Source of the DNA: Candidatus Bathyarchaeota archaeon
GTDB lineage: Archaea; Thermoproteota; Bathyarchaeia; TCS64
Reading direction: 5' to 3'
DNA length: 55,366 bases
NCBI GenBank assembly: GCA_020346605.1
Contig: CP070784.1
Coordinates: forward strand, 1,051,947 to 1,107,312
The notes below the pieces were generated by a model. That model made no database searches. It saw nothing but the letters and a program-made list of their open reading frames with translations, and was not told the DNA's origin. The translations under genes and the position numbers were made by a program. The number at the start of each line of letters is the position of its first letter. The first letter of the stretch is position 1. This document shows, one piece after another, positions 2,338 to 48,242 of this stretch.

Positions 2338-3582
2338 ATGAGGTTTGCCGTCCTCGCCGACGCCCACATCGGCCGCAGCATCCCCCTTGCCATAGCCGAG
2401 CACAGGCGCCGAGCCTTCTCCACCGCCTTCACCAAAGCGGTGGATGCCATCGTGGAAGCCGGTGTCGACTACGTCTTCATCTGCGGAGACCTCTTCGAGC
2501 GCCGCACCCTCCGCCCCTACCTCGTCCAGTTCACCCACGACGAGCTCTACAGGCTGTCGACGGAGACCGAGGAGAGGCACGGCAAGCCTACGAAGATCCT
2601 AATCATCCGGGGCAACCACGACGGCCGCTCCCAGTCCGATACCCTGGACTACATCAAGCACCCGCTGGCCGACTACCTCCACGTCTTCGAGGACGATAAC
2701 ATCACCTACAAGGACGAGAACCTCCACGTTGTAGGCCTCAACTACTACGACCAGGTCGACAGGGCCTTCGACCAGCTCGTCGTCCCCGCCTTCCAGGGGG
2801 CCGAAGGCACCAGGATACTTATGCTCCACGGCTTCGTCCAGGGCTACAACCAGGTCCCCCCCTACGAGAGCAGCGTCACACTGGACCAGCTAGCCTCCGT
2901 GGAGCCCGCCTTCGTTTTCACTGGCCACTACCACAGGCGCTGCCCCAGGAGGAGGTTGCCCAACGGCGGCTGGGCCCTCACTCCGGGCAGCCTGGAGATG
3001 TACGACTTCGCCGAGACCCCGGAGAAGGGCTTCTACATCGTGGACGCCAACGGCGAGGAGCCCCAGTTCACCTGGGTCCCCATCGAGCCCATGCACGCCA
3101 TGAAGCAGGTCAGAGTTGTGTCGGACCACAGCCGGGAGCCCCAATGGTACAGGGACAGGGTGGTGGAGAAGGTCGAGGCCTTCAGGGAAGAGCTCGTCGG
3201 GGCCGGGAAGGAGGGATACATCAGGGTACGGGTGCAGGGCGGCCTCAGGAACGGATACCCCGGTGACATCGACCTGTCCCCCGTCGATGAGATGGTCTCC
3301 TCAGACCCGCTCCTCCTCTGGGTTGACGTGGACACCCTCGGGATCGAGATGCCCCTGCTGGCCGGGGTCCCCGAGAGGGAGCTTGTGGACGTCAGGGCAT
3401 TCTTCTCCGCAATGGGGGAGTTCGCCGACGACATAGGGGAGATGCACGGCAGGATCCGTGAGACCCTGGAGGAGGAGGCGAGCCTGCAGACGGGGCTGCT
3501 CACACCCAGCCAGAGGATCCCCTTGGTCAAGGAGTGGGTTGAGCGCTTCGAGAAGCGGAGCTTCGGGGAGGACGAGCCATGA
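2338..3582 (+). CDS. mre11: Mre11/SbcD-family DNA repair nuclease
   Basis: Calcineurin-like phosphoesterase motifs DAH, GD, GNHD, LHG and GHYH; overlaps (ATGA) a Rad50-like gene. Confidence 0.88.
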   Translation: MRFAVLADAHIGRSIPLAIAEHRRRAFSTAFTKAVDAIVEAGVDYVFICGDLFERRTLRPYLVQFTHDELYRLSTETEERHGKPTKILIIRGNHDGRSQSDTLDYIKHPLADYLHVFEDDNITYKDENLHVVGLNYYDQVDRAFDQLVVPAFQGAEGTRILMLHGFVQGYNQVPPYESSVTLDQLASVEPAFVFTGHYHRRCPRRRLPNGGWALTPGSLEMYDFAETPEKGFYIVDANGEEPQFTWVPIEPMHAMKQVRVVSDHSREPQWYRDRVVEKVEAFREELVGAGKEGYIRVRVQGGLRNGYPGDIDLSPVDEMVSSDPLLLWVDVDTLGIEMPLLAGVPERELVDVRAFFSAMGEFADDIGEMHGRIRETLEEEASLQTGLLTPSQRIPLVKEWVERFEKRSFGEDEP

Positions 3583-5624
3583 TAGAGGAGCTCACCCTCC
3601 GGGGCTTCAAGTCCTACAGGAGCCGCCAGACCGTCAGGTTCACCCGGGGGGTCAACAAGATCTCGGGCCGAAACGCCTCTGGGAAGACCACCCTCCTCCA
3701 AGCGGTGCTCTTCGGCCTCTTCGGAGACGTCCCGGGCGTCAACAAGCAGGACCTGATCCCCCTCAACGGGGCAGACGTCGACGTCACCCTCGCCCTCCGC
3801 AGCCCCCTCAACGGGAAGAGGATCACCATCCACAGGGAGGGCGGCCAGACAAGGGATGGCGGGTTCCGCTCCTCCAAGAGCCTGCTCAAGGTCGAGGGGG
3901 AGGACGCCACGTACGCTCGTGAGCGGGAGATCCAGACCAAGCTAAGGGAGCTCATCGGCGTCGGCAGGAGCACCTTCTTCAACGTCGTCTACGCGCAGCA
4001 GAAGGAGTTCATTGAGATTCTCAAGCCCGATCGCCGGCGCATGGACGCTATACTGGGGCTCACCACTCCCGCCGAGATCAGGGAGCAGTTCCGAGAGGTG
4101 AGCAGGATGCTCAGGGATCGGGGGCGCATCGAGAAGCGCGGAGCCCTAGAGGAGAGGGTCAGGAACGCGGAGCAGGGAATCTCAGACCTGGATGGCCAGC
4201 TGGTGGAGGTCACCGAGCGCAGGCGCGATCTATCCGAGGGCCTCAACCAGATGAAGGTCCGACTCACCCTTGCCAACGGCCGGGTCGAGACCATGGACGG
4301 CATCCTCGCCGAGCTTAGGCGGGTGGAGATGTCACAGGCCGACTTGGAGCGCCTGCAGGAGCAGAGGGAGGACGTAGCCCGGGACCTGGAGGACATCTAC
4401 GTGGAGATGGGGGAGGATCCCGAGAAGACGCGCAGGGAGCTCCAGGAGCGGAGGAGCTCTGCGGAGACCACAGAGGAGGAGCTACGGCGCCTGCTCGACG
4501 GGAGGCTCGCCAGGGACAGGGCCGAAACAGTGGGCGCCGTCTCCCGATTGGAGCACCAAATCGGCGAGCACGTGGAGCTGAGGGAGCAGGGGGTCACCGT
4601 CTGCCCCAAGTGCGGCCAGGAGGTCAACTTCGACCTCTTGGAGAAGGACGTGAAGCAGTGGCAGGCTGAGCTCGAGCAGGAACGAGGCCGACTGAAGGCG
4701 CTGGAAAGGGAGATAAGCATGGTCCAGGAGCAGGCCAAGGCAGCCAGCCGCAGGTTCAGGGATGCCGACAGGGCAGTGATCAACTTCGTCAACCAGGAGA
4801 GGAGGATCAACGAGCTCAAGAAAACCATGCAGGACCTAGAGGCCAGGGGGGCCGACCTCCACGCCAGGATCGGCCGTGAGACCGAGGAGTTGCTGCTGAA
4901 GGCGGAGATGGAGCTCGCAACGGCCTTCGCCTCCCTCGAGGACGCCCAGGAGAAGATCGGCGAACAGCTCGACGGATCCCGCAGGGAGCAGAGGGAGCTC
5001 CAGGCCGAGGTCCGCTCGAGGGAGGACCGGCTCAAGGACGCTGACAGGGAAGAGGAGAGGATCCAGGGGCAGCAGGAGGGCCACCGTAAGGTCTTGGAGG
5101 AGTCGCTGGGGCTCCTAGACGGAATACGGGAGTACGAGGCCAAGATAAGGGCCGTCGACTCAATCCAGAGGCGCTACGGCGAGTACGAGCAGCAGTTGAG
5201 GGAGAACACGCTGAAGCTCCTGGAGTACCAGACCTATAACTACTTCCGCCGCCTCACAGACCAGCAGTCATACGCAGGGTGCCATATCGACAGGGAGCGC
5301 TACACGCTGGAGGTCCAGCCCCTCGGCGGAAACAGGATGATGCCCGCCTGGTTGGCAGGGGGAGGGCACGAGAGCCTTTTTGCCCTCGCGGAGCGCCTCG
5401 CCCTCCTCAGGGTAATGGGCTTTCCACACCTGTTGATTTTAGACGAGCCGACGGACGCTGTGGATTCGGAGAACGTCCCCCAGCTCCTGGAGTACGTAGC
5501 CCGGAGCAGCAGGGAGATCGGGCAGGTGTTGTTGGTGACCCACCACGGCCACGGCGAAGAGGAGGGCGTAAACTTGATAAGGGTGAGAAAGGTTGGCGAG
5601 GAGTCCAGAGTCTACCAAGAATAG
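3579..5624 (+). CDS. rad50: Rad50/SbcC-family SMC ATPase
   Basis: Walker A GRNASGKT, Q-loop YAQQ, coiled coils with a central CPKC zinc hook, Walker B LLILDEPT and H-loop VTHH. Confidence 0.88.
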   Translation: MIEELTLRGFKSYRSRQTVRFTRGVNKISGRNASGKTTLLQAVLFGLFGDVPGVNKQDLIPLNGADVDVTLALRSPLNGKRITIHREGGQTRDGGFRSSKSLLKVEGEDATYAREREIQTKLRELIGVGRSTFFNVVYAQQKEFIEILKPDRRRMDAILGLTTPAEIREQFREVSRMLRDRGRIEKRGALEERVRNAEQGISDLDGQLVEVTERRRDLSEGLNQMKVRLTLANGRVETMDGILAELRRVEMSQADLERLQEQREDVARDLEDIYVEMGEDPEKTRRELQERRSSAETTEEELRRLLDGRLARDRAETVGAVSRLEHQIGEHVELREQGVTVCPKCGQEVNFDLLEKDVKQWQAELEQERGRLKALEREISMVQEQAKAASRRFRDADRAVINFVNQERRINELKKTMQDLEARGADLHARIGRETEELLLKAEMELATAFASLEDAQEKIGEQLDGSRREQRELQAEVRSREDRLKDADREEERIQGQQEGHRKVLEESLGLLDGIREYEAKIRAVDSIQRRYGEYEQQLRENTLKLLEYQTYNYFRRLTDQQSYAGCHIDRERYTLEVQPLGGNRMMPAWLAGGGHESLFALAERLALLRVMGFPHLLILDEPTDAVDSENVPQLLEYVARSSREIGQVLLVTHHGHGEEEGVNLIRVRKVGEESRVYQE

Positions 5625-5652
5625 TACAAGGAACTTAAATGATCTCTTAAAA

Positions 5653-5773
5653 CTATCTGTTAGGGTTGGTGAGTGATATAATGGTCTTGGTGTTGGACAC
5701 TTCCTCGACGTCGTTGCGCGCGCATGTCCTTCATGCTATCAGGGGTCTCGGTGACCACCTTCAGCAGCGTATC
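5653..5773 (-). pseudogene. C-terminal remnant of an Lrp/AsnC ligand-binding domain gene
   Basis: Minus strand reads DTLLKVVTETPDSMKD, then after a GCGCGCGC tract (frame change) NDVEEVSNTKTIISLTNPNR*; matches the AsnC pattern D-x-LLKV...V-x-x-T-x-T-x-I-x-L; host-like codon usage. Confidence 0.7.
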
Positions 5774-5817
5774 GCGCGCGTACGCATTACAAATATATTT
5801 TGATGAAAAACTGTGAG

Positions 5818-6393
5818 TCATGATCGAATTGGATAAACTGTGCAATTTGAGCAGAACCAAGGAGAAGCCGAGAATACCCATTTCTCGGTCATCACGCCTT
5901 TAGAAGATATTTTTTTCTTTACATAAAGATAATTCATATCCAGATCGTCAACTATCTTGAAGAAGCCTGGCTTTTCCTTCCAGGTCCAATAGATGCAATG
6001 ACCTTCTCTATCCCTGTGGTGGCAGCTCGTCATCATGGTGCTACCTCTATTAATTGAGAGCGAATAATCCAGTTGTGTCATCAGTTCATTTCTCTTCCTC
6101 AGCCACTCCTCGGAATGCCTCGTGCGCGTGACCTCATCATATTCACGTACTGTCAACGAATTCTTCTCGGTCTTCGCCTGCTCCCGTAGGTTTGTGATCA
6201 GCTTCCAGAGTTCAGGGTCATATGGACCGACTCCTCGCTCCGTCTGCCCCTTTCTGCGGGTAATGTATCTGTGACCTTTTACAGTTTTAGCCCTGAAATT
6301 CCACCCATCCGATATGAGTCCCCGAATCTCATCCTCATCAATTTTCATAACCATGGGAAACTCAACCCACGTTGGAATGATGAAATTTCCCAT
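5818..6393 (-). CDS. Hypothetical mobile-element protein with a possible small N-terminal DNA-binding domain
   Basis: KTVKGHRYITRRKG..ERGVGPY resembles SSV1 D-335/integrase-N-type DNA-binding domains; C-terminal Cys cluster; the real start may be 6348 (MKIDE). Confidence 0.55.
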   Translation of the reverse strand: MGNFIIPTWVEFPMVMKIDEDEIRGLISDGWNFRAKTVKGHRYITRRKGQTERGVGPYDPELWKLITNLREQAKTEKNSLTVREYDEVTRTRHSEEWLRKRNELMTQLDYSLSINRGSTMMTSCHHRDREGHCIYWTWKEKPGFFKIVDDLDMNYLYVKKKISSKGVMTEKWVFSASPWFCSNCTVYPIRS

Positions 6394-6625
6394 ATTAATG
6401 TGTTTCCCATCGGTTTACCATGAAGGGGCTGCTTACTTTCGGTGTGACCTTCTCCCCTACCTGGTTATGCCGGTTTACCCTGTTTACCACCGAATATTTG
6501 AGGGGTAGGCTAGCCTACTTCCCATCAGAAGCTCTTGTATACGTTTGCATCAATACCTTCATCGTAGCCCTCATCTGTACCCAGTGTCCTTTACTACGGG
6601 GTTTGAGTCGACATGGTTTACCATG
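6351..6625. repeat. Iteron-like short repeats GGTTTACC(A) and TTTCCCAT
   Basis: GGTTTACCATG at 6412, GGTTTACCC at 6472, GTTTACCAC at 6482, palindromic CATGGTTTACCATG at 6612-6625; TTTCCCAT at 6386 and 6403, TTCCCAT at 6519, and an inverted copy in 6351-6360. Confidence 0.55.
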
Positions 6626-6699
6626 TAAGACCCGAGTATGGGCGCGCGCCGTTTAGAACTCGCGAGCACGCTTAAAAGAGGTGGGCTTTTTCGCTCACG

Positions 6700-7482
6700 G
6701 TGGTTAAACAAACGGAAATAAAGCTCGACGTCCTAATTTCTATGGGGGACTGGATGAGTCATCTACGATGCCCTCTCTGTGGCTTGAACGCCGCTGTTTC
6801 TAGGTTTGACCCTTCCGGACTCGATTTAGACTTGAGGGCGACGAGTTTCAGAGGGCTTGGCTATGGAAGAGGCTTCGCGCCAGTGGAGGAGCACTCGGTT
6901 CTGGGGGATGACGAATTTTCACCGCTGGTTGCAGAACGCGTCTTATCGCTCTGTATGATGTTCCTAGATGCGGGGGTTATCAACTCTGAGTACACGATAG
7001 ATAAGCTCGGACTGAAACCAAAATCATCAATGTCCATCGAGTCTCCTACGCGCCCTGAAATCCGAACCGTGCTTTTACCCTCAGAACTGAATAGTGTTGA
7101 ACTCACTCGTGCACGTGAAACCATAAAAGAGCAAGAAAAAGAGTTAGAGCGTGAGAGAATGATAGACAGAGAGCTGCTAAGATTCATCAGAGATTATCCG
7201 TATGTAGAAATAAATGAGGAGGAAGTACCATGGACAATAGATATAACCGATGTTGACACCGAAAGCCTTCAAACACTAATTTTACTTTACGGGTATTTAG
7301 ATATTGACACACAGAAACACCTCCTAAAAAGACTGAAGACCGAACACCCCTTAGTTGAATATTTTTTAGAACTATTTATGGTAAAACCTAAAAAAACAAT
7401 AGCCCAAAGGATAATGGAATTCGATGCAAACAAGGTTAGAACCAATATTAAAAGCGGTTTACAGGAACGCTGGTTCGAGTAA
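6700..7482 (+). CDS. Hypothetical protein with N-terminal CPLC motif and GLGxGRGF motif
   Basis: 260-aa ORF, AT-rich; likely start 6739 or 6751. Confidence 0.65.
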   Translation: MVKQTEIKLDVLISMGDWMSHLRCPLCGLNAAVSRFDPSGLDLDLRATSFRGLGYGRGFAPVEEHSVLGDDEFSPLVAERVLSLCMMFLDAGVINSEYTIDKLGLKPKSSMSIESPTRPEIRTVLLPSELNSVELTRARETIKEQEKELERERMIDRELLRFIRDYPYVEINEEEVPWTIDITDVDTESLQTLILLYGYLDIDTQKHLLKRLKTEHPLVEYFLELFMVKPKKTIAQRIMEFDANKVRTNIKSGLQERWFE

Positions 7483-7597
7483 ATTTGACAAATAAAATAA
7501 CTGGTGTGTGCACAATAAAATCACGTGTGAGTGCACACTCATGTATAATGTTGCGCGTAGCTGATCTAGTGTGCTAGGATCAAAGTTCGCAATAAAA

Positions 7598-7918
7598 TTA
7601 GGAGGTGAGGGATTCACTAACTTCCTTGATCAGCGGTATGCTCAGCTCCGCCGATGAGACCCCTGTGTTGAACGCCATCAGCGCAGCCGCCTGGATCTGC
7701 TCCTTGGACGCGCCGGCGTCGAACGCGAGCCTGGTGAAGTGCCTCAGCGCCACCGGGTCCCTCGTGGTCGAGTAGATGCCGACCAGTATCAGGTTCCTCG
7801 TCTTCTCGTCGAGCACTCCGTCCTTGTTTATCGCCGCGGAGAGCTTTATGTAGGCCTCCGCCGCCTCGGGGGTCTCCTCGTTGAAGATCTCCCAGACACT
7901 CTTGCTCAATTCTACCAC
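7598..7918 (-). CDS. Carboxymuconolactone decarboxylase/AhpD family protein
   Basis: GVLDEKTRNLILVG...H..LAFDAGASKEQI pattern; TATA-like TTTATA upstream; lacks CxxC. Confidence 0.85.
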   Translation of the reverse strand: MVELSKSVWEIFNEETPEAAEAYIKLSAAINKDGVLDEKTRNLILVGIYSTTRDPVALRHFTRLAFDAGASKEQIQAAALMAFNTGVSSAELSIPLIKEVSESLTS

Positions 7919-7996
7919 CGCATAAAGGAGCGTCCAGGGAAGTATAAACGTGCGCGCATGTCAGGTCATTTTTGGCGCGAAGAGGGGCTCAGGTGG

Positions 7997-9391
7997 TCAC
8001 TTCTTTCTCAGGAAGAAGAACGCCGCCGCCCCGACAACAGCCAGACCCACGACGGCTGCGATCATCACTATGCTGCCTGACCCTGGCTCAGACGACGTTA
8101 CGTCGAGGCTCACTTGGTCCAGGCTCTCGGCGTTGTCGAACTCCCACACTACCCTGTCGGCCTCCTCAGAGACTGGGTTGCTCCCCGCCGGGGAGGATAT
8201 GACTACGCTCTCGCCGCCGATGGAACCCCCCTCCAGGATGAGCATGAAGTCCTCCGGGGGGCTCTCCTCCGTTAGGTACTGGAGGAACTCCGTGAATGCG
8301 TTGAGGGAGGGGGGCACCATCCCCAGATCCCTCAGATCGAAGCCCGAGTTCACCGTGCCGTCTGTCGCCTCGTAGTCGGCCTCGAAGTGCAGGTCCCTGA
8401 CGCTGAAGACGGTGGGCCAGAGGAACTCGTTTATCATGGCGACGTCCTCGTCGTCCAGTGAGCCCTCCTGGAGCACCTCGGTGAGCATAGACTCCTTGAG
8501 CACGTTGAGCTGCTCGTCGACGTCGCCCACGACCGTCGCCTCGGAGCTCGCCTCGAAGGTGAAGCTATCCTTGACGTAGACCAGGCTCGAGGAGTAGGAC
8601 TCCACCTCGACGACGGAGATCTCCCCGAAGTCGTATCCCTCCTCGGTGTACACGAGGCCCATGTTGTCCATGGCTGCCCTGATCCCCTTCTGGAAGTCCC
8701 CTCCTATACTCGCCTCGATCGCGAAGGTGGTGGAGACGGGGCCCATCTCGCTGCTGACGAGCTCCAGCCTGCTTAAGCTCAGCTCCCCGTCAGAGTTCTC
8801 GGCTACCTGTGAGGCCAGCATAGTCTCCATCAGCGGGAACATCATGAGCATCTGCTCGATCTCCTCCTGGGGATAGATGACATAGTACAGTGTGGCGCTC
8901 ACGGAGAGGTCTATCGTGCCGGTGAAGGGCGGCTCGACGAGGTTGGACTCCAGGGTTCCGTCGAGGGCGATGTACCCGGGGTAGTCGACATGGATGTAGA
9001 CAACCTGGCTGGTGCTGTCTCCCTGACTCTCCACCTCCAGCTCAAGGTTCGCCAGCTCTGAGGCCTCTTCCGGTCTCATCTCCAAGGAGAGGTCGAAGGA
9101 GATGTCTGTTCTTCCCTCGGTGGCGGTCTCAAGGTCCAGCAACATCTGGTAGTTACGGACCAGGTCGCTGAACCCCCATTGATAGCGTTCTTGGGTGAAG
9201 CTGCCCTGGGCCCGTATCACGATGCTCTCGTCGGGCAGGATCTGGAATGTAATGTGATTGTCGTACTGGGAGTCCGCGGCCGATGCAAGCCCTAGCGGGT
9301 TCAGTCCGGCCGCCAACACCGCCGCCAACGTCAGTGGCACTAAAAATGCTTTCACTCTCTTGAACATCCCCAAATTTCTCCGGTTAGACAT
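7997..9391 (-). CDS. Secreted, C-terminally membrane-anchored acidic protein
   Basis: N-terminal signal peptide, acidic body, C-terminal TM helix followed by RKK. Confidence 0.8.
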   Translation of the reverse strand: MSNRRNLGMFKRVKAFLVPLTLAAVLAAGLNPLGLASAADSQYDNHITFQILPDESIVIRAQGSFTQERYQWGFSDLVRNYQMLLDLETATEGRTDISFDLSLEMRPEEASELANLELEVESQGDSTSQVVYIHVDYPGYIALDGTLESNLVEPPFTGTIDLSVSATLYYVIYPQEEIEQMLMMFPLMETMLASQVAENSDGELSLSRLELVSSEMGPVSTTFAIEASIGGDFQKGIRAAMDNMGLVYTEEGYDFGEISVVEVESYSSSLVYVKDSFTFEASSEATVVGDVDEQLNVLKESMLTEVLQEGSLDDEDVAMINEFLWPTVFSVRDLHFEADYEATDGTVNSGFDLRDLGMVPPSLNAFTEFLQYLTEESPPEDFMLILEGGSIGGESVVISSPAGSNPVSEEADRVVWEFDNAESLDQVSLDVTSSEPGSGSIVMIAAVVGLAVVGAAAFFFLRKK

Positions 9392-9547: not shown

Positions 9548-9907
9548 ATGGTCTACTGCACAAAATGTGGGACTCAGAACGAGGATGGGGCCTCCAACTG
9601 CGTGAGCTGTGGGGCCTCCCTCAGGGTGTCCCGGCGAGTGAGGAGGGGCTGGGAGGAAGAGATCGAGGTGCGCGCGGAGGAGTTCGGGGAGAGGGCGGAG
9701 GAGTTCGGCAGACGAATGGAGGCCGAGTGCTTCGGCCTGCCCCGAGGGAACTCGATCATCGGGGTCCTCATAGGTCTCGCCATCATCCTCGTGGGAGTTC
9801 GCGAGCTCCTCGGCTGGAGCATCGACCTCGGGCCCTTCGCAGCCATTGTGGTGGGCGTCCTCATCATCGCAGGAGCCCTTTACAGGCAGAGTCAGGGGAG
9901 ACCCTGA
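9548..9907 (+). CDS. Zinc-ribbon domain membrane protein
   Basis: CTKCG...CVSCG zinc ribbon and two C-terminal TM helices. Confidence 0.85.
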   Translation: MVYCTKCGTQNEDGASNCVSCGASLRVSRRVRRGWEEEIEVRAEEFGERAEEFGRRMEAECFGLPRGNSIIGVLIGLAIILVGVRELLGWSIDLGPFAAIVVGVLIIAGALYRQSQGRP

Positions 9908-10255
9908 TCGCGCGCCCTCCTTTTTCAGGCGACCACACGTCGTCGATGGATTCCTAGGAAGGATGAGCTAGATTTTCTTCAATCTTAACGACGTTTTCGT
10001 ACCTGACGATGTAGTTTACATGGCTTTTTCGTCCTGGTTCATCTCCGCCTCTCATCGATTCATATCCTCAAAATCCGTATAAACTCCAAGGATGATTGCT
10101 CTGGATCCGTGTGAAGGTCAGCACCCCCATAGAGTTGGTCGCAGAAGCCTCCACAACGCGCACTGTGGGTAACCAAATTCTACTGTCGCCCCACATTGAT
10201 GTTTACTCAAAATCCGTGTTCGCGCTCTTTTCCCCGCATGCAACTCGCAAGGGTG

Positions 10256-23796: not shown

Positions 23797-24369
23797 TTAG
23801 GTCCCGAGTTCTGGGTGCTGTTCTTCTGCGATTGGCTTAATCTGGTTGTATAGGTACTCGACCCACTCGCAGGTTTGAGGAGCGTCGTAGTATTTCCTCA
23901 ATTCATCTATGATCTGGCTATATTTTTTCCTGAGTATGAGCGTACCCGCTGACATGAAGTCATATATTAGCGAGGCTTTAATGAGTCCCTTGGACAAGAA
24001 TTCCTATTCCCTCGTAAAACATCATGATAGTGTTGAATTTGGTATAACGATCTGTGTCGGGTCCAAATTTCTCCATGAAGTCTTCATAGTCACGCCACTC
24101 CCAATTGAAAAGGACGTCATTGATTGTCCTCATGAAATTCTCATCAAGCATTCTGTTGTACACAGTGAGAAACATCTGTGCCTGCCTTGTCTCCAGTGCC
24201 TGTTCCTGTGCTTTTAATGCCAGCTCCCTTGTCCTCTGTGCATTCCTCAGCGTGCTTATGTAGTAGAACGCCGCAAGGCTGACGCTCAGCCCAGTGCGCG
24301 CGCGGCTACAAGAATTACTACTACCTGTATCAACATGATAAGAGTCTGAAGGGTCAATTTCTCAATCAT
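23797..24369 (-). pseudogene. DUF4760-like membrane-anchored protein, chimeric and frameshifted
   Basis: MIEKLTLQ...ILVA | GC tract | TGLSVSLAAFYYISTLRNAQ...LETRQAQMF...FYEGIGILV, frameshift near 23990, then GLIKASLIY...EWVEYLYNQIK. Confidence 0.75.
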
Positions 24370-24386
24370 TCTAATCTCAATAATGG

Positions 24387-24416
24387 ATTGTGGTGAAATG
24401 AAGAAAAGAGTATGGG
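24387..24416. repeat. 30-bp direct repeat, copy 1
   Basis: ATTGTGGTGAAATGAAGAAAAGAGTATGGG; 27/30 identical to 25255-25284. Confidence 0.9.
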
Positions 24417-24439
24417 CGCAGCGCATCGCGTGTACGATC

Positions 24440-25195
24440 TTATCTTTTTATCGTCGCTAAACCGTCTTTTATGCCAGCAGCTGCCCATCGACTCCATGGA
24501 CGGGTGAAGAACCTGAACCCCCTCTCCACTAATTCACTGGGATCTAGACCTCTCGGGATGAAATACATGCCGGGGACGACTCCGGCCTCCTCACAGGCCT
24601 CCGCAATCCTGTCCAACGTCCCTTGGTACTTGGGGTTTAGATAGTCCAACGCGATACCCAATGCGATGGAAAGGTCCGAAGGGCCCACCAGGAGAACGTC
24701 GATCCCGGGGACCGAGAGGATCTCCTCTAGGTTACCCAGCGCCTTCAGCGTCTCCACCATGGGGATAATCAGCAGCTCCTCGTTGACCGCGGACATATAC
24801 TCCGTGAAGTTCTCGAACTCCCCCCATTCGCCCCTCATTCCGGCGGCGCTCCTGATCCCCTCGGGCGGATACTTGCAGCAGCGGACCATATGGACGGCCT
24901 CCTCCTTCGAGTTGACCATGGGCACGATGATGCCCTTGGCGCCGATGTCGAGGGCGTAGCAGATCTGATCCTGGTAGTTATCCCCCACCCGGATGATTGG
25001 GATGGCCTTCTTCCCCTTCATGTCTTGGAGTTGATGCCGCAACTCCTTGATCTCCACGGCCGAGTGCTGCGTGTCGAAGAGGAGGAAATCGAATCCCGCA
25101 TCCGCCAAGAACCCCGCAGGGCTCGTCAGGGAAGCGGTCGTCCCGATAGCGGTCTTACCTACTCTCAACATGTCCTTAACGATGTTCATTTTCAC
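24440..25195 (-). CDS. HpcH/HpaI aldolase family protein
   Basis: GFDFLLFDTQH, LDIGAKGIIVPMV, YPPEGIR, MVET and GPSDLS motifs. Confidence 0.92.
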   Translation of the reverse strand: MKMNIVKDMLRVGKTAIGTTASLTSPAGFLADAGFDFLLFDTQHSAVEIKELRHQLQDMKGKKAIPIIRVGDNYQDQICYALDIGAKGIIVPMVNSKEEAVHMVRCCKYPPEGIRSAAGMRGEWGEFENFTEYMSAVNEELLIIPMVETLKALGNLEEILSVPGIDVLLVGPSDLSIALGIALDYLNPKYQGTLDRIAEACEEAGVVPGMYFIPRGLDPSELVERGFRFFTRPWSRWAAAGIKDGLATIKR

Positions 25196-25254
25196 TGAAC
25201 CTCAGAAGACTAATCATCAACTAATATTTAATACAGTTATTCTTGCGCGTGCCA

Positions 25255-25284
25255 ATTGGGGCGAAGTGAAGAAAAGAGTATGGG
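25255..25284. repeat. 30-bp direct repeat, copy 2
   Basis: ATTGGGGCGAAGTGAAGAAAAGAGTATGGG. Confidence 0.9.
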
Positions 25285-25310
25285 GGAAAACATGAGCTGC
25301 AGTTGTTTTA

Positions 25311-25888
25311 TCATTGAATGGAATCGATTTGACGCCTCATGTCGCCGACTACTTTTTCATTGAACTGTGTTTCGAGATGCTCCTTTATTCGATGAGCCAA
25401 GTACTCCCAAGAAATCCAAGCACCCTCCCAGCCGTATGACGCTCTCAACTCTCGTTTTATTGGCTTCCATTTTTCCCAAGTCCTCAGTGGTAGTTCTCCC
25501 AGAAACAACACCACATAGTCTAGATCCAGTTTTTCTCGGTATACGAGAGAACCTATAGCGACAAAGGTATACCAGATTGTCGATGTCTCTGCATATCTTT
25601 CAGGATTCGCTAAGGGACCGCAGTTCTCCATGAACTCAAAGCTCTCATAACTTGGTCCATATCTGACGCTGGTGTGTCTCTCCCAGTACTCTGGAGACCC
25701 AGTTCTAGGAATATCTGCATCATAAGGGCTGTCTGTCTTGTCTCAAGGGCTTCCTCCTGTGATTTCAAAGTCAGAGCCTGGTTTCTCTATGCGTTTCTCA
25801 CGGTCATGACGTAGTACGTGAAGCCCGCTATCACCCCCACTATCGTAACAACCTCTCTCATCGCTTGAAGAGTAGACAACTCAATCAT
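25311..25888 (-). pseudogene. DUF4760-like membrane-anchored protein, disrupted paralog
   Basis: MIELSTLQ...VIAGFTYYVMTVRNA* (in-frame TAG at 25787-25789), LETRQTALMMQIF, frameshift(s), then ...WEKWKPI...WEYLAHRIK. Confidence 0.75.
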
Positions 25889-26084
25889 CTGGATCGTACT
25901 AAATTATGGTAATCTGTGGGCGCGCGCGTGCGATCGATTCTAGCAGAGCCTCGTGCATATTTTTCTAGCGGAGCGCACTGGAGCCTCCGGCTAGCATCTG
26001 GGAGGTCCTCAAACTGGTAAACGAGGTCGTCGACCAGTGTCCCGACAACTGACTGCATACCGCCTTGGGGCGATGCTGAGCTCC

Positions 26085-33638: not shown

Positions 33639-33954
33639 AACCCCTTTTTTTCAGGGGCTGCAGGTTTCGACGAGAACCTTCCCTCCATTCATGCGCGCGT
33701 ACGCAGCCCGTGGGGTCCATGACCTTTATGTCTGTGGCTCGAATCTACTCCCCGCAATAAACGTTCTCGTGGGGCGCATCACCGCTTAAGACTTATTGCT
33801 GATATTTGCGCGCGCAGTTTCAGGAGATCCCAACTCTTTGATGAGAAATGGACCATTGTCCATTTTCTTTTTGGTAGATGAGGTAGATCAAGCTGAGCAA
33901 ACTATAGCGATAACCGCCATTCGGCGACAGTACTTCGCCGTATGGATTTACGGA

Positions 33955-34292
33955 TCATAGTTGAAGTTTAATGTGCGCTATGCCAGGTCTCCTAAATTCC
34001 AACTTGTTGAACGCCAAGAACATTAACTGCCTGGAACTCCTTTCTCTCACGTTCTCGGACTCCACGAGGATCTTAATTGGCTCTACGAACTTGGTCTCAT
34101 AGACTCCGATTCTGGGTATCAACTCTATCCCGAGGTTCTCGGTTGAGACCACGATCGGTTCGCCTTGAAACTCTAGGAGGTTATCCAAGTCAGGCAGAGC
34201 GTTCTCAGAATAAACGTGCTCGATTGTTTTAAGAATCAGTCTTGCCTTGTCACGATCCGTCTCATTGAGCGTTGGGAATATGCCGAACCCGG
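33955..34292 (-). pseudogene. 5'-truncated AT-richer ORF fragment
   Basis: Frame open from the GC tract at 34293 (PGFGIFPTLNETDRDK...) to the stop at 33955, with no upstream start codon. Confidence 0.6.
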
Positions 34293-34430
34293 GCGCGCGC
34301 AGGCGCGCTAGGTTTAGGGTCCTTTAATCCTGAAAAACTCGGCGAACGCGCAAGGCACGTACGAAGGGAACAACATCGTTGCTTCGTGAAAAAGTTTTAT
34401 TGTTCGCCGATGAAGGTTCAAAGGACCGAT

Positions 34431-34784
34431 ATGGACGAGAAGCTGATATCCGTCTGCGGTATCGACTGCGGCGAGTGCCCCGCCTACATAGCCACAAAGG
34501 AGGACGACGTCGCTAAGCTGGCAGAGGTCGCCAAGCAGTGGGCGTCCGACGACATGCCACTAGATGCGGAGGACGTCGTCTGCGACAGCTGCCACGGCCC
34601 CAGACTCTTCAAGTGGTGCACCCAGTGCCCCACCAGGGCGTGCGCCGTGGAGAAGAGTAACCACACCTGCGCCGACTGCGGAGATTACCTCTGCGACAAG
34701 TTGAACGAATCCTGGAAAATGATGGGGGAATCCGCGGAGACCTTCAAGGCCAACCTGGACGAGATCAGGAGCCAACGCGCCTAG
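34431..34784 (+). CDS. DUF3795-type cysteine-rich protein
   Basis: CGIDCGECPAY, CDSC, CTQCPTRAC and CADCGDYLC motifs. Confidence 0.85.
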   Translation: MDEKLISVCGIDCGECPAYIATKEDDVAKLAEVAKQWASDDMPLDAEDVVCDSCHGPRLFKWCTQCPTRACAVEKSNHTCADCGDYLCDKLNESWKMMGESAETFKANLDEIRSQRA

Positions 34785-47988: not shown

Positions 47989-48094
47989 TGGCGCCGGGAA
48001 AGGGATTTGAACCCTTGCGTCCGTACGGACACTAGCTTTCCAGGCCTGAGCCACCCGAAGGCGTTAGCTCCCTTCCAGGCTAGGAGACCCCGGC
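47989..48094 (-). tRNA. tRNA-Ser(GGA), CCA encoded, with a 19-nt intron at position 29/30 (48046-48064)
   Basis: Acceptor GCCGGGG/TCCCGGC, T-arm AAGGG-TTCAAAT-CCCTT, long variable arm GTCCG/CGGAC; the anticodon stem CTAGC/GCTAG forms only after intron removal; strict BHB motif. Confidence 0.93.
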
Positions 48095-48242
48095 TCAGAA
48101 TATACCCAACACCCCCCCAATTTAGGCGTTACCCTGCCTGGGGGAGAGGGTGCAAGAGCCCCTGGTGCCAAGATTAACACGAGCGCAGGAGTTTTAAGCC
48201 TTTAATTCAGATTAAATAACCGGATAACAGGAGGAAAACATT

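Follow-up and report, generated by a model that had tools for sequence, protein, structure and literature searches.

The window analysed here, a stretch of 55,366 nt that forms the initial 55 kb of a 71.5-kb contig in a metagenome-assembled genome (MAG) of a Candidatus Bathyarchaeota archaeon, carries at positions 5653-5780 what is probably the remnant of a small gene for an Lrp/AsnC-type RAM domain, cut by two octamers of strictly alternating G and C. Runs of this kind, which we call tracts and define as maximal alternating-GC runs, are far more numerous in this genome than its shorter runs predict, lie mostly outside genes and coincide with points at which homology breaks off; genome-wide there are 369 of at least 7 nt and 239 of at least 8 nt. 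We tentatively propose, with a confidence that falls just short of even, that the two octamers are scars of DNA joints of a kind common in this genome, and that such tracts are a joint signature specific to its lineage.

The two octamers occupy positions 5716-5723 and 5773-5780, and a third lies at 6642-6649. The 49 nt between the first two agree with an earlier reading of this DNA made from its letters alone (hereafter the sequence-only reading), which had placed two tracts about 50 bp apart. On the minus strand the DNA runs ...GATAGCATGAAGGAC, ATGCGCGCGC, AACGACGTCGAGGAA..., with the codons GAT AGC ATG AAG GAC before and AAC GAC GTC GAG GAA after, and it translates as ..DTLLKVVTETPDSMKD in one frame and as NDVEEVSNTKTIISLTNPNR in the next, followed by a stop at 5653-5655. 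The same reading had expected about six codons where only 10 nt are present; indeed, when the two pieces were joined with six X (the expected 18 nt), they aligned without a gap to positions 36-73 of a 76-position profile built from ten RAM domains of this genome, at 3.6 bits. Taken singly, segment A (Table 1; piece 5656-5715) covers profile positions 61-73 with 2.9 bits, and segment B starts at position 36 and scores 0.3 bits (piece 5726-5785). Among 20000 random non-coding two-piece constructs built to the same geometry, 0.04% reached 3.6 bits, and 0.11% of 20000 random constructs showed a GC contrast between codon positions as strong as that of the fragment, both values being nominal, with the free choice of place and family by the sequence-only reading left uncorrected. 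The GC content at first, second and third codon positions (GC1/2/3) is 0.35/0.35/0.70 in segment A and 0.53/0.33/0.87 in segment B; the genome's own RAM genes have ~0.5/0.27/0.8, native genes overall 0.57/0.41/0.79, and the two adjoining genes a GC3 of 0.52 and 0.43. The open-frame GC3 contrast of segment B (0.43) is the highest among 23 inter-tract segments of 40-62 nt. Furthermore, the fragment ends six residues past the last strand, like the stand-alone RAM proteins of this genome, which has stand-alone RAM genes of 75-83 aa. Because of the two nulls and the host-like codon-position GC, the two pieces are probably a real coding remnant of a small RAM gene of host type, and at best a piece of a stand-alone one.

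Several observations count against this assignment. Pfam returned no family at E<=10 for either piece, a six-frame scan of the genome with PF01037 (cut-off 25 bits) gave 15 matches, none of them at this locus, and, the search for an intact orthologue having yielded none, the loss of 18 nt is read from the family alignment alone. An intact close relative was found neither in the wider set of 41 genomes used for DNA searches and tract counts, where positions 5630-5800 matched only themselves (next best E>=0.006, over 18-29 nt in unrelated genes), nor among proteins of 40-128 aa, the lengths searched in a collection of 5.8 billion, none of which shared three five-residue words with the 73-aa open reading frame (ORF) over segment B. 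Only ~36 residues of the RAM domain are left, in two frames. A helix-turn-helix (HTH) part is missing: the DNA upstream of segment B is tract 2 and then the ORF191 3' flank, and only the RAM half is present. RAM genes in this genome are not generally bracketed by tracts: 0 of 10 have a run of at least 6 nt within 400 nt, except for one GCGCGC at +207. As such, the earlier claim of one AsnC domain in two frames is upheld by the colinear, ungapped alignment and by the two nulls, and weakened by the silence of Pfam and a score of only 3.6 bits.

The fragment lies in DNA that the relatives lack. In the four other genomes of the genus (G001-G004, metagenome-assembled like every genome compared here, and only ~80% identical in DNA to this one, G000, a distance at which the ancestral states of joints are mostly not known), blastn places a match to window position 7591 or 7607 onward within ~10 nt of position 5621. 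There the Rad50-like gene (82% amino acid identity for the orthologues in G001, G002 and G004) directly abuts the CMD-family gene, matched at its 3' end, and this empty site has neither a RAM gene nor a tract. Because the flanks adjoin directly in the relatives, the stretch 5625-7590, flanked by two convergent native genes, is extra DNA in this genome. The alternative of a resident Lrp/AsnC gene decaying in place is ruled out by the empty site in 4 of 4 same-genus genomes, and the sequence-only reading has to be corrected on this point, as the fragment sits inside the inserted stretch and has no HTH part. The stretch is single-copy in the genome save for 6742-6939, and its ends show no convincing target duplication and no convincing inverted ends. 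By eye, the Rad50-like gene is a few codons shorter than in G001-G004 (5610-5640), a TAG having arisen beside the left border. The Mre11-like and Rad50-like genes beside the locus are ordinary orthologues, and we draw nothing from their position.

These borders suggest how the locus was assembled. The 1.97-kb stretch would have been joined in between the Rad50-like and CMD-family genes, its left 150 nt being the 3' half of a small RAM-domain gene on the minus strand, with codon usage of host type, and the remainder a foreign, AT-richer ORF191/ORF260 module. Tract 2, which sits 38 nt past the ORF191 stop, would be the joint between the truncated RAM gene and the 3' flank of the module; that a second tract joins the cut gene to AT-rich DNA, as had been claimed, fits its place at this border. 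Tract 1 and two further bases would have replaced 18 nt of the gene, with a net change of -8 nt and a frameshift.

Similar tracts form a genome-wide class. Within the window, GCGCGCG occurs 32 times on both strands, compared with 7.6 +/- 3.7 in 100 dinucleotide-preserving shuffles, none of which reached 32. Across the 2.30-Mb genome (103 contigs with 100-N spacers, 92.8% complete, 6% contamination), alternating-GC runs of 3 to 13 nt number 48371, 9852, 1793, 325, 130, 120, 77, 28, 9, 3 and 2, respectively; five other dinucleotide alternations decay geometrically with length. From the decay between lengths 4 and 6 (x0.18 per base), ~72 runs of at least 7 nt are predicted against the 369 found, and ~11 runs of exactly 8 nt against 120, of which 93 begin with G and 27 with C. 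The mode is exactly GCGCGCGC, and by our own arithmetic the numbers of 9-mers and of C-start 10-mers fit a GCGCGCGC core with random flanks. Around this core (211 copies) nothing is conserved but a T at -1, in 40%.

The placement of the tracts is equally distinct. Native genes, called with a crude caller of our own that misses atypical genes, number 2275 and make 84.7% of the genome coding, and hold 62 of the 239 tracts of at least 8 nt (26%), leaving 74% outside. With increasing run length the share in native genes falls from 89% at 4 nt to 26% at 8 nt and 21% at 9 nt, and local GC from 0.59 to 0.50. Local GC is 0.514 at tracts, 0.579 at random positions and ~0.60 at control GC-only 8-mers, 83-98% of which lie within long ORFs. 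Genes hold 0.032 tracts per kb; spacers, whatever their orientation, hold 0.24-0.75 per kb, 8- to 24-fold more.

Tracts also sit where homology ends. The part of the window that can be aligned to one or more of G001-G004 makes up 69.3% of it and holds just 2 of the 18 tracts (P=4.9e-7); the other 16 fall into unaligned stretches between synteny blocks. We aligned 400 nt on each side of the 369 tracts against the genome, with the same result when the low-complexity filter was off. Among 349 internal ends of paralogue alignments, 32 lie within +/-5 nt of the tract, compared with 1-11 per 10-nt bin out to 85 nt; at identities of at least 95%, 17 ends fall on the tract and 0-4 into any other bin. 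Both flanks match one paralogue at 31 tracts, 29 times in frame and twice with a frameshift, both frameshifts being among the 8 tracts of at least 8 nt and none among the 23 heptamers.

Individual genes are broken at tracts as well. At genome position 90909, a small Cys-rich gene has lost ~23 codons, with ~10 nt of alternating GC in their place and a frameshift, and at 847704 a few codons are swapped for alternating GC likewise. Two metagenome loci with ORF191-like genes (such loci bear L-numbers), L028:1532-2396 and L027:2848-3717, are 69% identical; ~39 nt, AT-rich in L027, are represented in L028 by 25 nt with GCGGCGCGCGCGCG, a net change of -14 nt, and the ORF260-like gene of L028 is split into two ORFs at that 11-nt GC run. 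Counting the RAM-like fragment, these alignments would bring the genes broken in this way to at least four. A 62-nt copy of genome 85998-86059 breaks off at window tract 24296, where the other copy continues without a tract (85915 onward). Four tracts lie at 33649-34453 and none in the corresponding 99-nt spacer of G002 and G004, and the 60 kb of G002:C17 hold 3 tracts, of which none corresponds in position to a tract of the window. One further candidate, at genome 124788, where a tract stands at a stretch that is shorter than in the paralogues and in frame, was ambiguous and not counted.

Some features of these regions are recorded as seen. The small (~105 aa) Cys-rich family forms tandem arrays at genome 89429-91230, 847704 and 1288101-1290394, with two pseudogenes broken at 9-nt GC runs. 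At 33808-34300 a 477-nt segment lies between identical GCGCGCGC octamers, within an 805-nt spacer that replaces the 99-nt promoter spacer of G002 and G004. Identical 9-mers, GCGCGCGCG, stand 1.6 kb apart at 24296-25928, and part of the DNA between them (24438-25246) aligns to G002 and G004, on other contigs there.

Adjacent tracts are often close together, with 47 gaps below 100 nt compared with 4.6 expected. The gaps of this genome are most frequent at 40-62 nt (23 pairs, compared with none at 26-39 nt, P=6.7e-7), a peak that includes the 49-nt gap of the fragment; counted by pattern, there are 13 gaps of 14-38 nt and 43 of 40-64 nt. An at least two-fold excess of the latter class is found in 3 of 10 tract-rich relatives (G003, G015 and G019), short gaps being as many elsewhere. 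Hence, close pairing of tracts is general, and a preference for ~50 nt is not established. A ~50-nt ruler, with capture of histone-sized fragments, was dropped since only 3 of 10 relatives agree, though two histone-fold genes are present. The segments between close pairs lie wholly outside native genes in 33 of 44 cases and have no second copy in 39 of 44; the 5 second copies all belong to known repeat families.

Among genomes the tracts are distributed patchily. We took the ratio of GCGCGCGC occurrences to isolated GCGCGC runs in the 41 genomes. Each of the five genomes in the genus, as well as G009, G019, G020 and G024, has a ratio of 0.62-1.49, and G015 and G039 have 0.53-0.58, which makes 11 of 41 with at least 0.5; in the remaining 30 it is <=0.30. 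The ratio varies even within genera, as in g4, with 1.49, 0.78, 0.26 and 0.09. This patchiness suggests a determinant that is gained and lost rather than a conserved signal.

We thus hypothesize that the joining of DNA ends lays down or regenerates a short alternating G-C sequence, mostly of exactly four GC units. An all-GC palindrome of 8 nt would be the strongest possible short microhomology and would pair with itself on either strand, such that any two ends carrying it could anneal; being self-complementary, the tract could be reused in later joints as a strong microhomology or a fragile point. The data show the insertion, the excess of tracts and where they lie, their coincidence with homology breakpoints, the breaks within genes and the coding signature of both pieces; that the tract is newly synthesised at the joint is what we infer, and a polymerase might lay it down, or a nuclease and a ligase might regenerate it, two routes between which the sequence cannot tell. 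The RAM fragment would be dead, and the tracts at this locus would be scars with no further role. In its widest form the idea would be that this lineage, and patchily others in the class, joins ends in an undescribed way, by self-complementary tails or bridges of alternating G-C, usually of four GC units, with GCGCGCGC serving as a 'solder' at deletions, borders of captured foreign DNA and rearrangements and later as a preferred breakpoint; this we offer as a speculation that is unlikely to hold.

The most serious rival, to which we give an appreciable chance while thinking it rather improbable, is that the tracts were there before the joints. The octameric palindrome GCGCGCGC would then delimit exchangeable modules, much as at the boundaries of mosaic mobile elements, and joints would form between tracts on both partners by recombination or template switching, with AT-rich islands bringing their own tracts and without any de novo synthesis. 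Several observations count against an origin of tracts at joints, and some of them favour this rival. A CGCGCGC at 9909-9915, right after the stop of the gene 9548-9907, is common to G000, G002 and G004, and homology and synteny among these three end exactly on it; because it is conserved in three species with the break on it, this tract pre-dated that joint. Past it comes a small RAM gene in G002 and G004, and in G002 GCGCGCGCG follows 26 nt after the stop of that gene, which is thereby bracketed by two tracts. In a repeat family at genome 646684-646973, 437859-438145, 1774086-1774240 and 1835616-1835770, a tract stands at the shared boundary in every copy, and one internal GCGCGCGC is GCGCGTGC in another copy, so that point changes can create or erode tracts too. 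The length spectrum, by our arithmetic, fits a defined 8-nt core with random flanks better than filler of free length. The rival further draws on the clustering and patchy occurrence of the tracts and on their presence within ~250 nt of gene 3' ends at most of eight ORF191/ORF260 loci from different metagenomes. It is also unfavourable to an origin at joints that Ku (PF02735) was not found in this 92.8%-complete genome, LigD and polymerase domains not having been searched. What argues against pre-existing sites is that the empty insertion site in four relatives and the 99-nt spacer of G002 and G004 contain no tract, that block ends in G002:C17 matching window joints have none either, that the replacements inside genes would require two tracts a few codons apart, of which the intact paralogues and L027 have none, and that no conserved flanks exist for a site-specific recombinase to bind. 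Our reading remains that tracts arise at joints and are later re-used, with pure recombination at existing sites as a serious rival. Of the earlier statement that a tract was added where a break had been repaired, what is supported is that tracts mark joints and that three other genes are broken at one; the addition itself is unproven, and tracts can pre-exist a joint.

Two further explanations have less in their favour. The tracts could be a functional intergenic motif, protein-binding or structure-forming (e.g. paired tracts that close a hairpin), with the joints incidental, as homology breaks off in spacers in any case, and the AsnC-like peptides due to chance. Their density in spacers of all orientations, the tract conserved in three species directly after a stop codon, the short-distance pairs that are common in tract-rich relatives too and the failure of Pfam to detect the RAM domain would all suit such a motif. 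We nevertheless regard it as improbable: positions are mostly unconserved (0 of 3 tracts in the 60 kb of G002:C17 match window tracts), alignment ends fall on the tract itself and not merely in spacers, tracts occur inside broken genes, related genomes with a similar content of 6-nt runs are almost free of tracts, and the two pieces combine a profile match (P about 4e-4) with codon-position GC typical of coding DNA (P about 1e-3). That library or assembly chimeras in MAGs produced the tracts as an artefact appears very improbable. All genomes are indeed MAGs, contamination is 6% here, the window contig begins with a tract and 39 of the 239 tracts lie in contig-end spacers. On the other hand, of 206 contig ends only one consists of a tract, assemblers use word sizes far above an overlap of 8 nt, and the same surplus is seen in four same-genus MAGs and in contigs of several Joint Genome Institute (JGI) metagenomes. 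Moreover, Logan contigs of public runs (X-numbers), which come from a different assembly, confirm the DNA itself. X1 covers 5468-6833 with 1 difference and X2 covers 5468-6518 and 6619-8400; together these two samples of one study, which may be the source samples, span both borders and all three tracts, in keeping with the earlier view that random chimera formation would not readily produce such an arrangement. From a second study, X4 covers 5408-5744 and 7114-7503 with 0 differences; its 337 nt over the left border bridge that border, but not tract 1, as they end 21 nt past it (31-nt rule). X5, from a third study, covers 7309-7459 and 7572-7863. A contig joining 5624 to 7591 was found in none of the four runs (X1, X2, X4, X5).

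Two other possible causes of the surplus were considered and rejected. Methylation with short-patch repair was set aside, as PF00145 (C5-methyltransferase) and PF03852 (Vsr) were not found, other methyltransferase families being unsearched. The ORF191/ORF260 module is not the cause, since G001-G004 are rich in tracts yet lack ORF191 (with this query); around another ORF260-like copy, close to genome 1960309, there is no tract of at least 7 nt.

Table 1. Features at and around the inserted stretch (window positions).
Feature	Positions	Strand	Description
Mre11-like phosphoesterase gene	2338-3582		Pfam Metallophos (2338-3579); precedes the Rad50-like gene
Rad50-like SMC ATPase gene	3579-5624	+	Pfam AAA_23 9.9e-19, SMC_N 9.6e-18; left neighbour of the insertion
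Inserted stretch	5625-7590		1.97 kb, GC 0.45; only in this genome among those compared
Segment A	5653-5715	-	20 codons and stop (5653-5655); aligns with the last strands of the RAM domain
Tract 1	5716-5723		GCGCGCGC; with 5724-5725 makes 10 nt where the domain expects 18 nt
Segment B	5724-5772	-	49 nt, 15-16 codons; aligns mid-RAM domain; frame differs from segment A
Tract 2	5773-5780		CGCGCGCG; mid-domain cut of the RAM-like fragment, joined to the ORF191 3' flank
ORF191	5818-6393	-	Conserved hypothetical; motif GWNFRxKTVKGxRYITRRKGQ, long helix, four-Cys C-terminal part
Three 12-nt repeats (CGGTTTACCATG type)	6411-6625		In the spacer between the two divergent module genes; candidate operators
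Tract 3	6642-6649		GCGCGCGC; divergent spacer ORF191/ORF260; bridged by Logan X1 record 2 and X2 record 15
ORF260	6700-7482	+	N-terminal CPLCG motif; homologues begin at the MSHL residues, ~6754
CMD-family gene	7598-7918	-	Pfam CMD 1.3e-9; right neighbour of the insertion

The ORF191/ORF260 pair is a sporadic two-gene module. In the protein collection ORF191 has 6 relatives (37-80% identity), and its family is present at 12 metagenome loci; among 401 genomes of the class its family occurs in 9, this one included, and in 0 of the 4 same-genus genomes. In the seven loci looked at closely (L022-L028), an ORF191-like gene lies beside an ORF260-like gene among otherwise different neighbours, and ORF260 is 27-53% identical to the neighbours of the ORF191-like genes in L022, L023, L025, L026 and L027. 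Neither protein has a Pfam family or relatives in viral contigs, and an alignment search of further genome contigs with ORF191 gave none. A Foldseek comparison of the ORF191 fold with the PDB returned no match at E<=0.001 (best 0.12), and the best Z in a wide VIA-align search was 5.4, with noise at 7-8; the structure model of ORF260 is too poor for a fold search (pLDDT, the predicted local distance difference test, 58.5), and neither protein has a recognisable fold. The N-terminal motif of ORF191 also appears within open frames of 842-886 aa in L040, L042 and L046 (G117, G110), from another family of the class, and a fused form may exist. Palindromes of the ATGGTACCAT type recur in the spacer 6411-6625 and at genome 12176-12260, 437800-438569, 646555-647100 and 1614995-1615221, and many AATGGTACCATT-like sites lie in tract-rich repeated regions at contig ends; both types may be operators of one element family.

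Elsewhere in the window, positions 1-8 are CGCGCGCG, at the contig start and the sole such case among the 206 contig ends. Over its initial 990 nt the contig is rich in A and T, has no alignment to the relatives and carries an Rce1-like protease gene between two tracts. At 47989-48124, a segment of 122-136 nt is 92-95% identical in G002, G003 and G004, with neighbouring genes at 70-83%; it has no Rfam or tRNA match and is a candidate structured RNA. A scan of the whole window with Rfam and for tRNA genes gave no matches.

If the proposal is true, the tracts would be a sequence signature that pinpoints DNA joining, i.e. deletions, gene capture and rearrangements, in uncultured Bathyarchaeia genomes, and the borders of insertions and the origin of pseudogenes could be read directly from the sequence. 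It would also hint at an as yet unknown activity that joins or recombines DNA in this lineage, in which Ku was not found. With 11 of 41 genomes affected and close relatives differing, phylogenetic profiling should be able to identify the responsible gene. From the standpoint of annotation the locus is ordinary, a dead gene fragment beside a small foreign two-gene module.

Full-text searches, which do not extend to subscription journals, returned no paper on a GCGCGCGC surplus or on GC filler in archaeal genomes, and we therefore compare the tracts with systems known from elsewhere. The fragment itself resembles the RAM domain of Lrp/AsnC proteins (PF01037) in being colinear over profile positions 36-73, in ending near the natural C-terminus and in sharing the codon composition of the genome's own RAM genes, and differs from it in having no significant Pfam match, no HTH domain and only ~36 residues, in two frames. 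Fragile sites of the (CG)n type share single features with the tracts. REP/BIME and REPIN elements are short palindromic intergenic elements of bacteria, present in hundreds, 20-40 nt long, imperfectly palindromic and conserved in sequence; like them the tracts are short intergenic palindromes in the hundreds, frequently paired at close range and frequently placed right behind genes, but the tracts are not conserved beyond their 8-nt core and the segments between paired tracts are unique (39 of 44).

Filler DNA of end joining, such as N-nucleotides and the templated insertions of microhomology-mediated joining, has no fixed sequence. The tracts are like it in that a few extra bases (7-13 nt) stand exactly at the joint and genes are frameshifted, and the uninterrupted form is found elsewhere, in L027, in the paralogues of 90909 and 847704 and, for 24296, at 85915 onward. 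Unlike such filler, they are always alternating G-C and mostly exactly 8 nt long, some pre-date their joint, and Ku was not found.

Among described systems, HIP1, a palindrome of cyanobacteria that was reportedly first noticed at the borders of a deletion, comes nearest to the tracts. HIP1 is the highly iterated octameric palindrome GCGATCGC (PMC5861425, PMC4390886, PMC13756078), with about one copy per gene and largely inside genes (PMC5861425), and it is tied to cognate methyltransferases (PMC5861425, PMC4390886, PMC13756078). Tracts and HIP1 are both GC-rich palindromes of 8 nt, in excess in some lineages, at background level in close relatives and of unexplained origin. As for methylation, PF00145 and PF03852 are the families that were searched here, and neither was found in this 92.8%-complete genome. 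Tracts and HIP1 differ in that HIP1 is dense in genes whereas the tracts reach 0.032 per kb in genes and 0.24-0.75 in spacers, and in that the tracts coincide with the breakpoints of homology.

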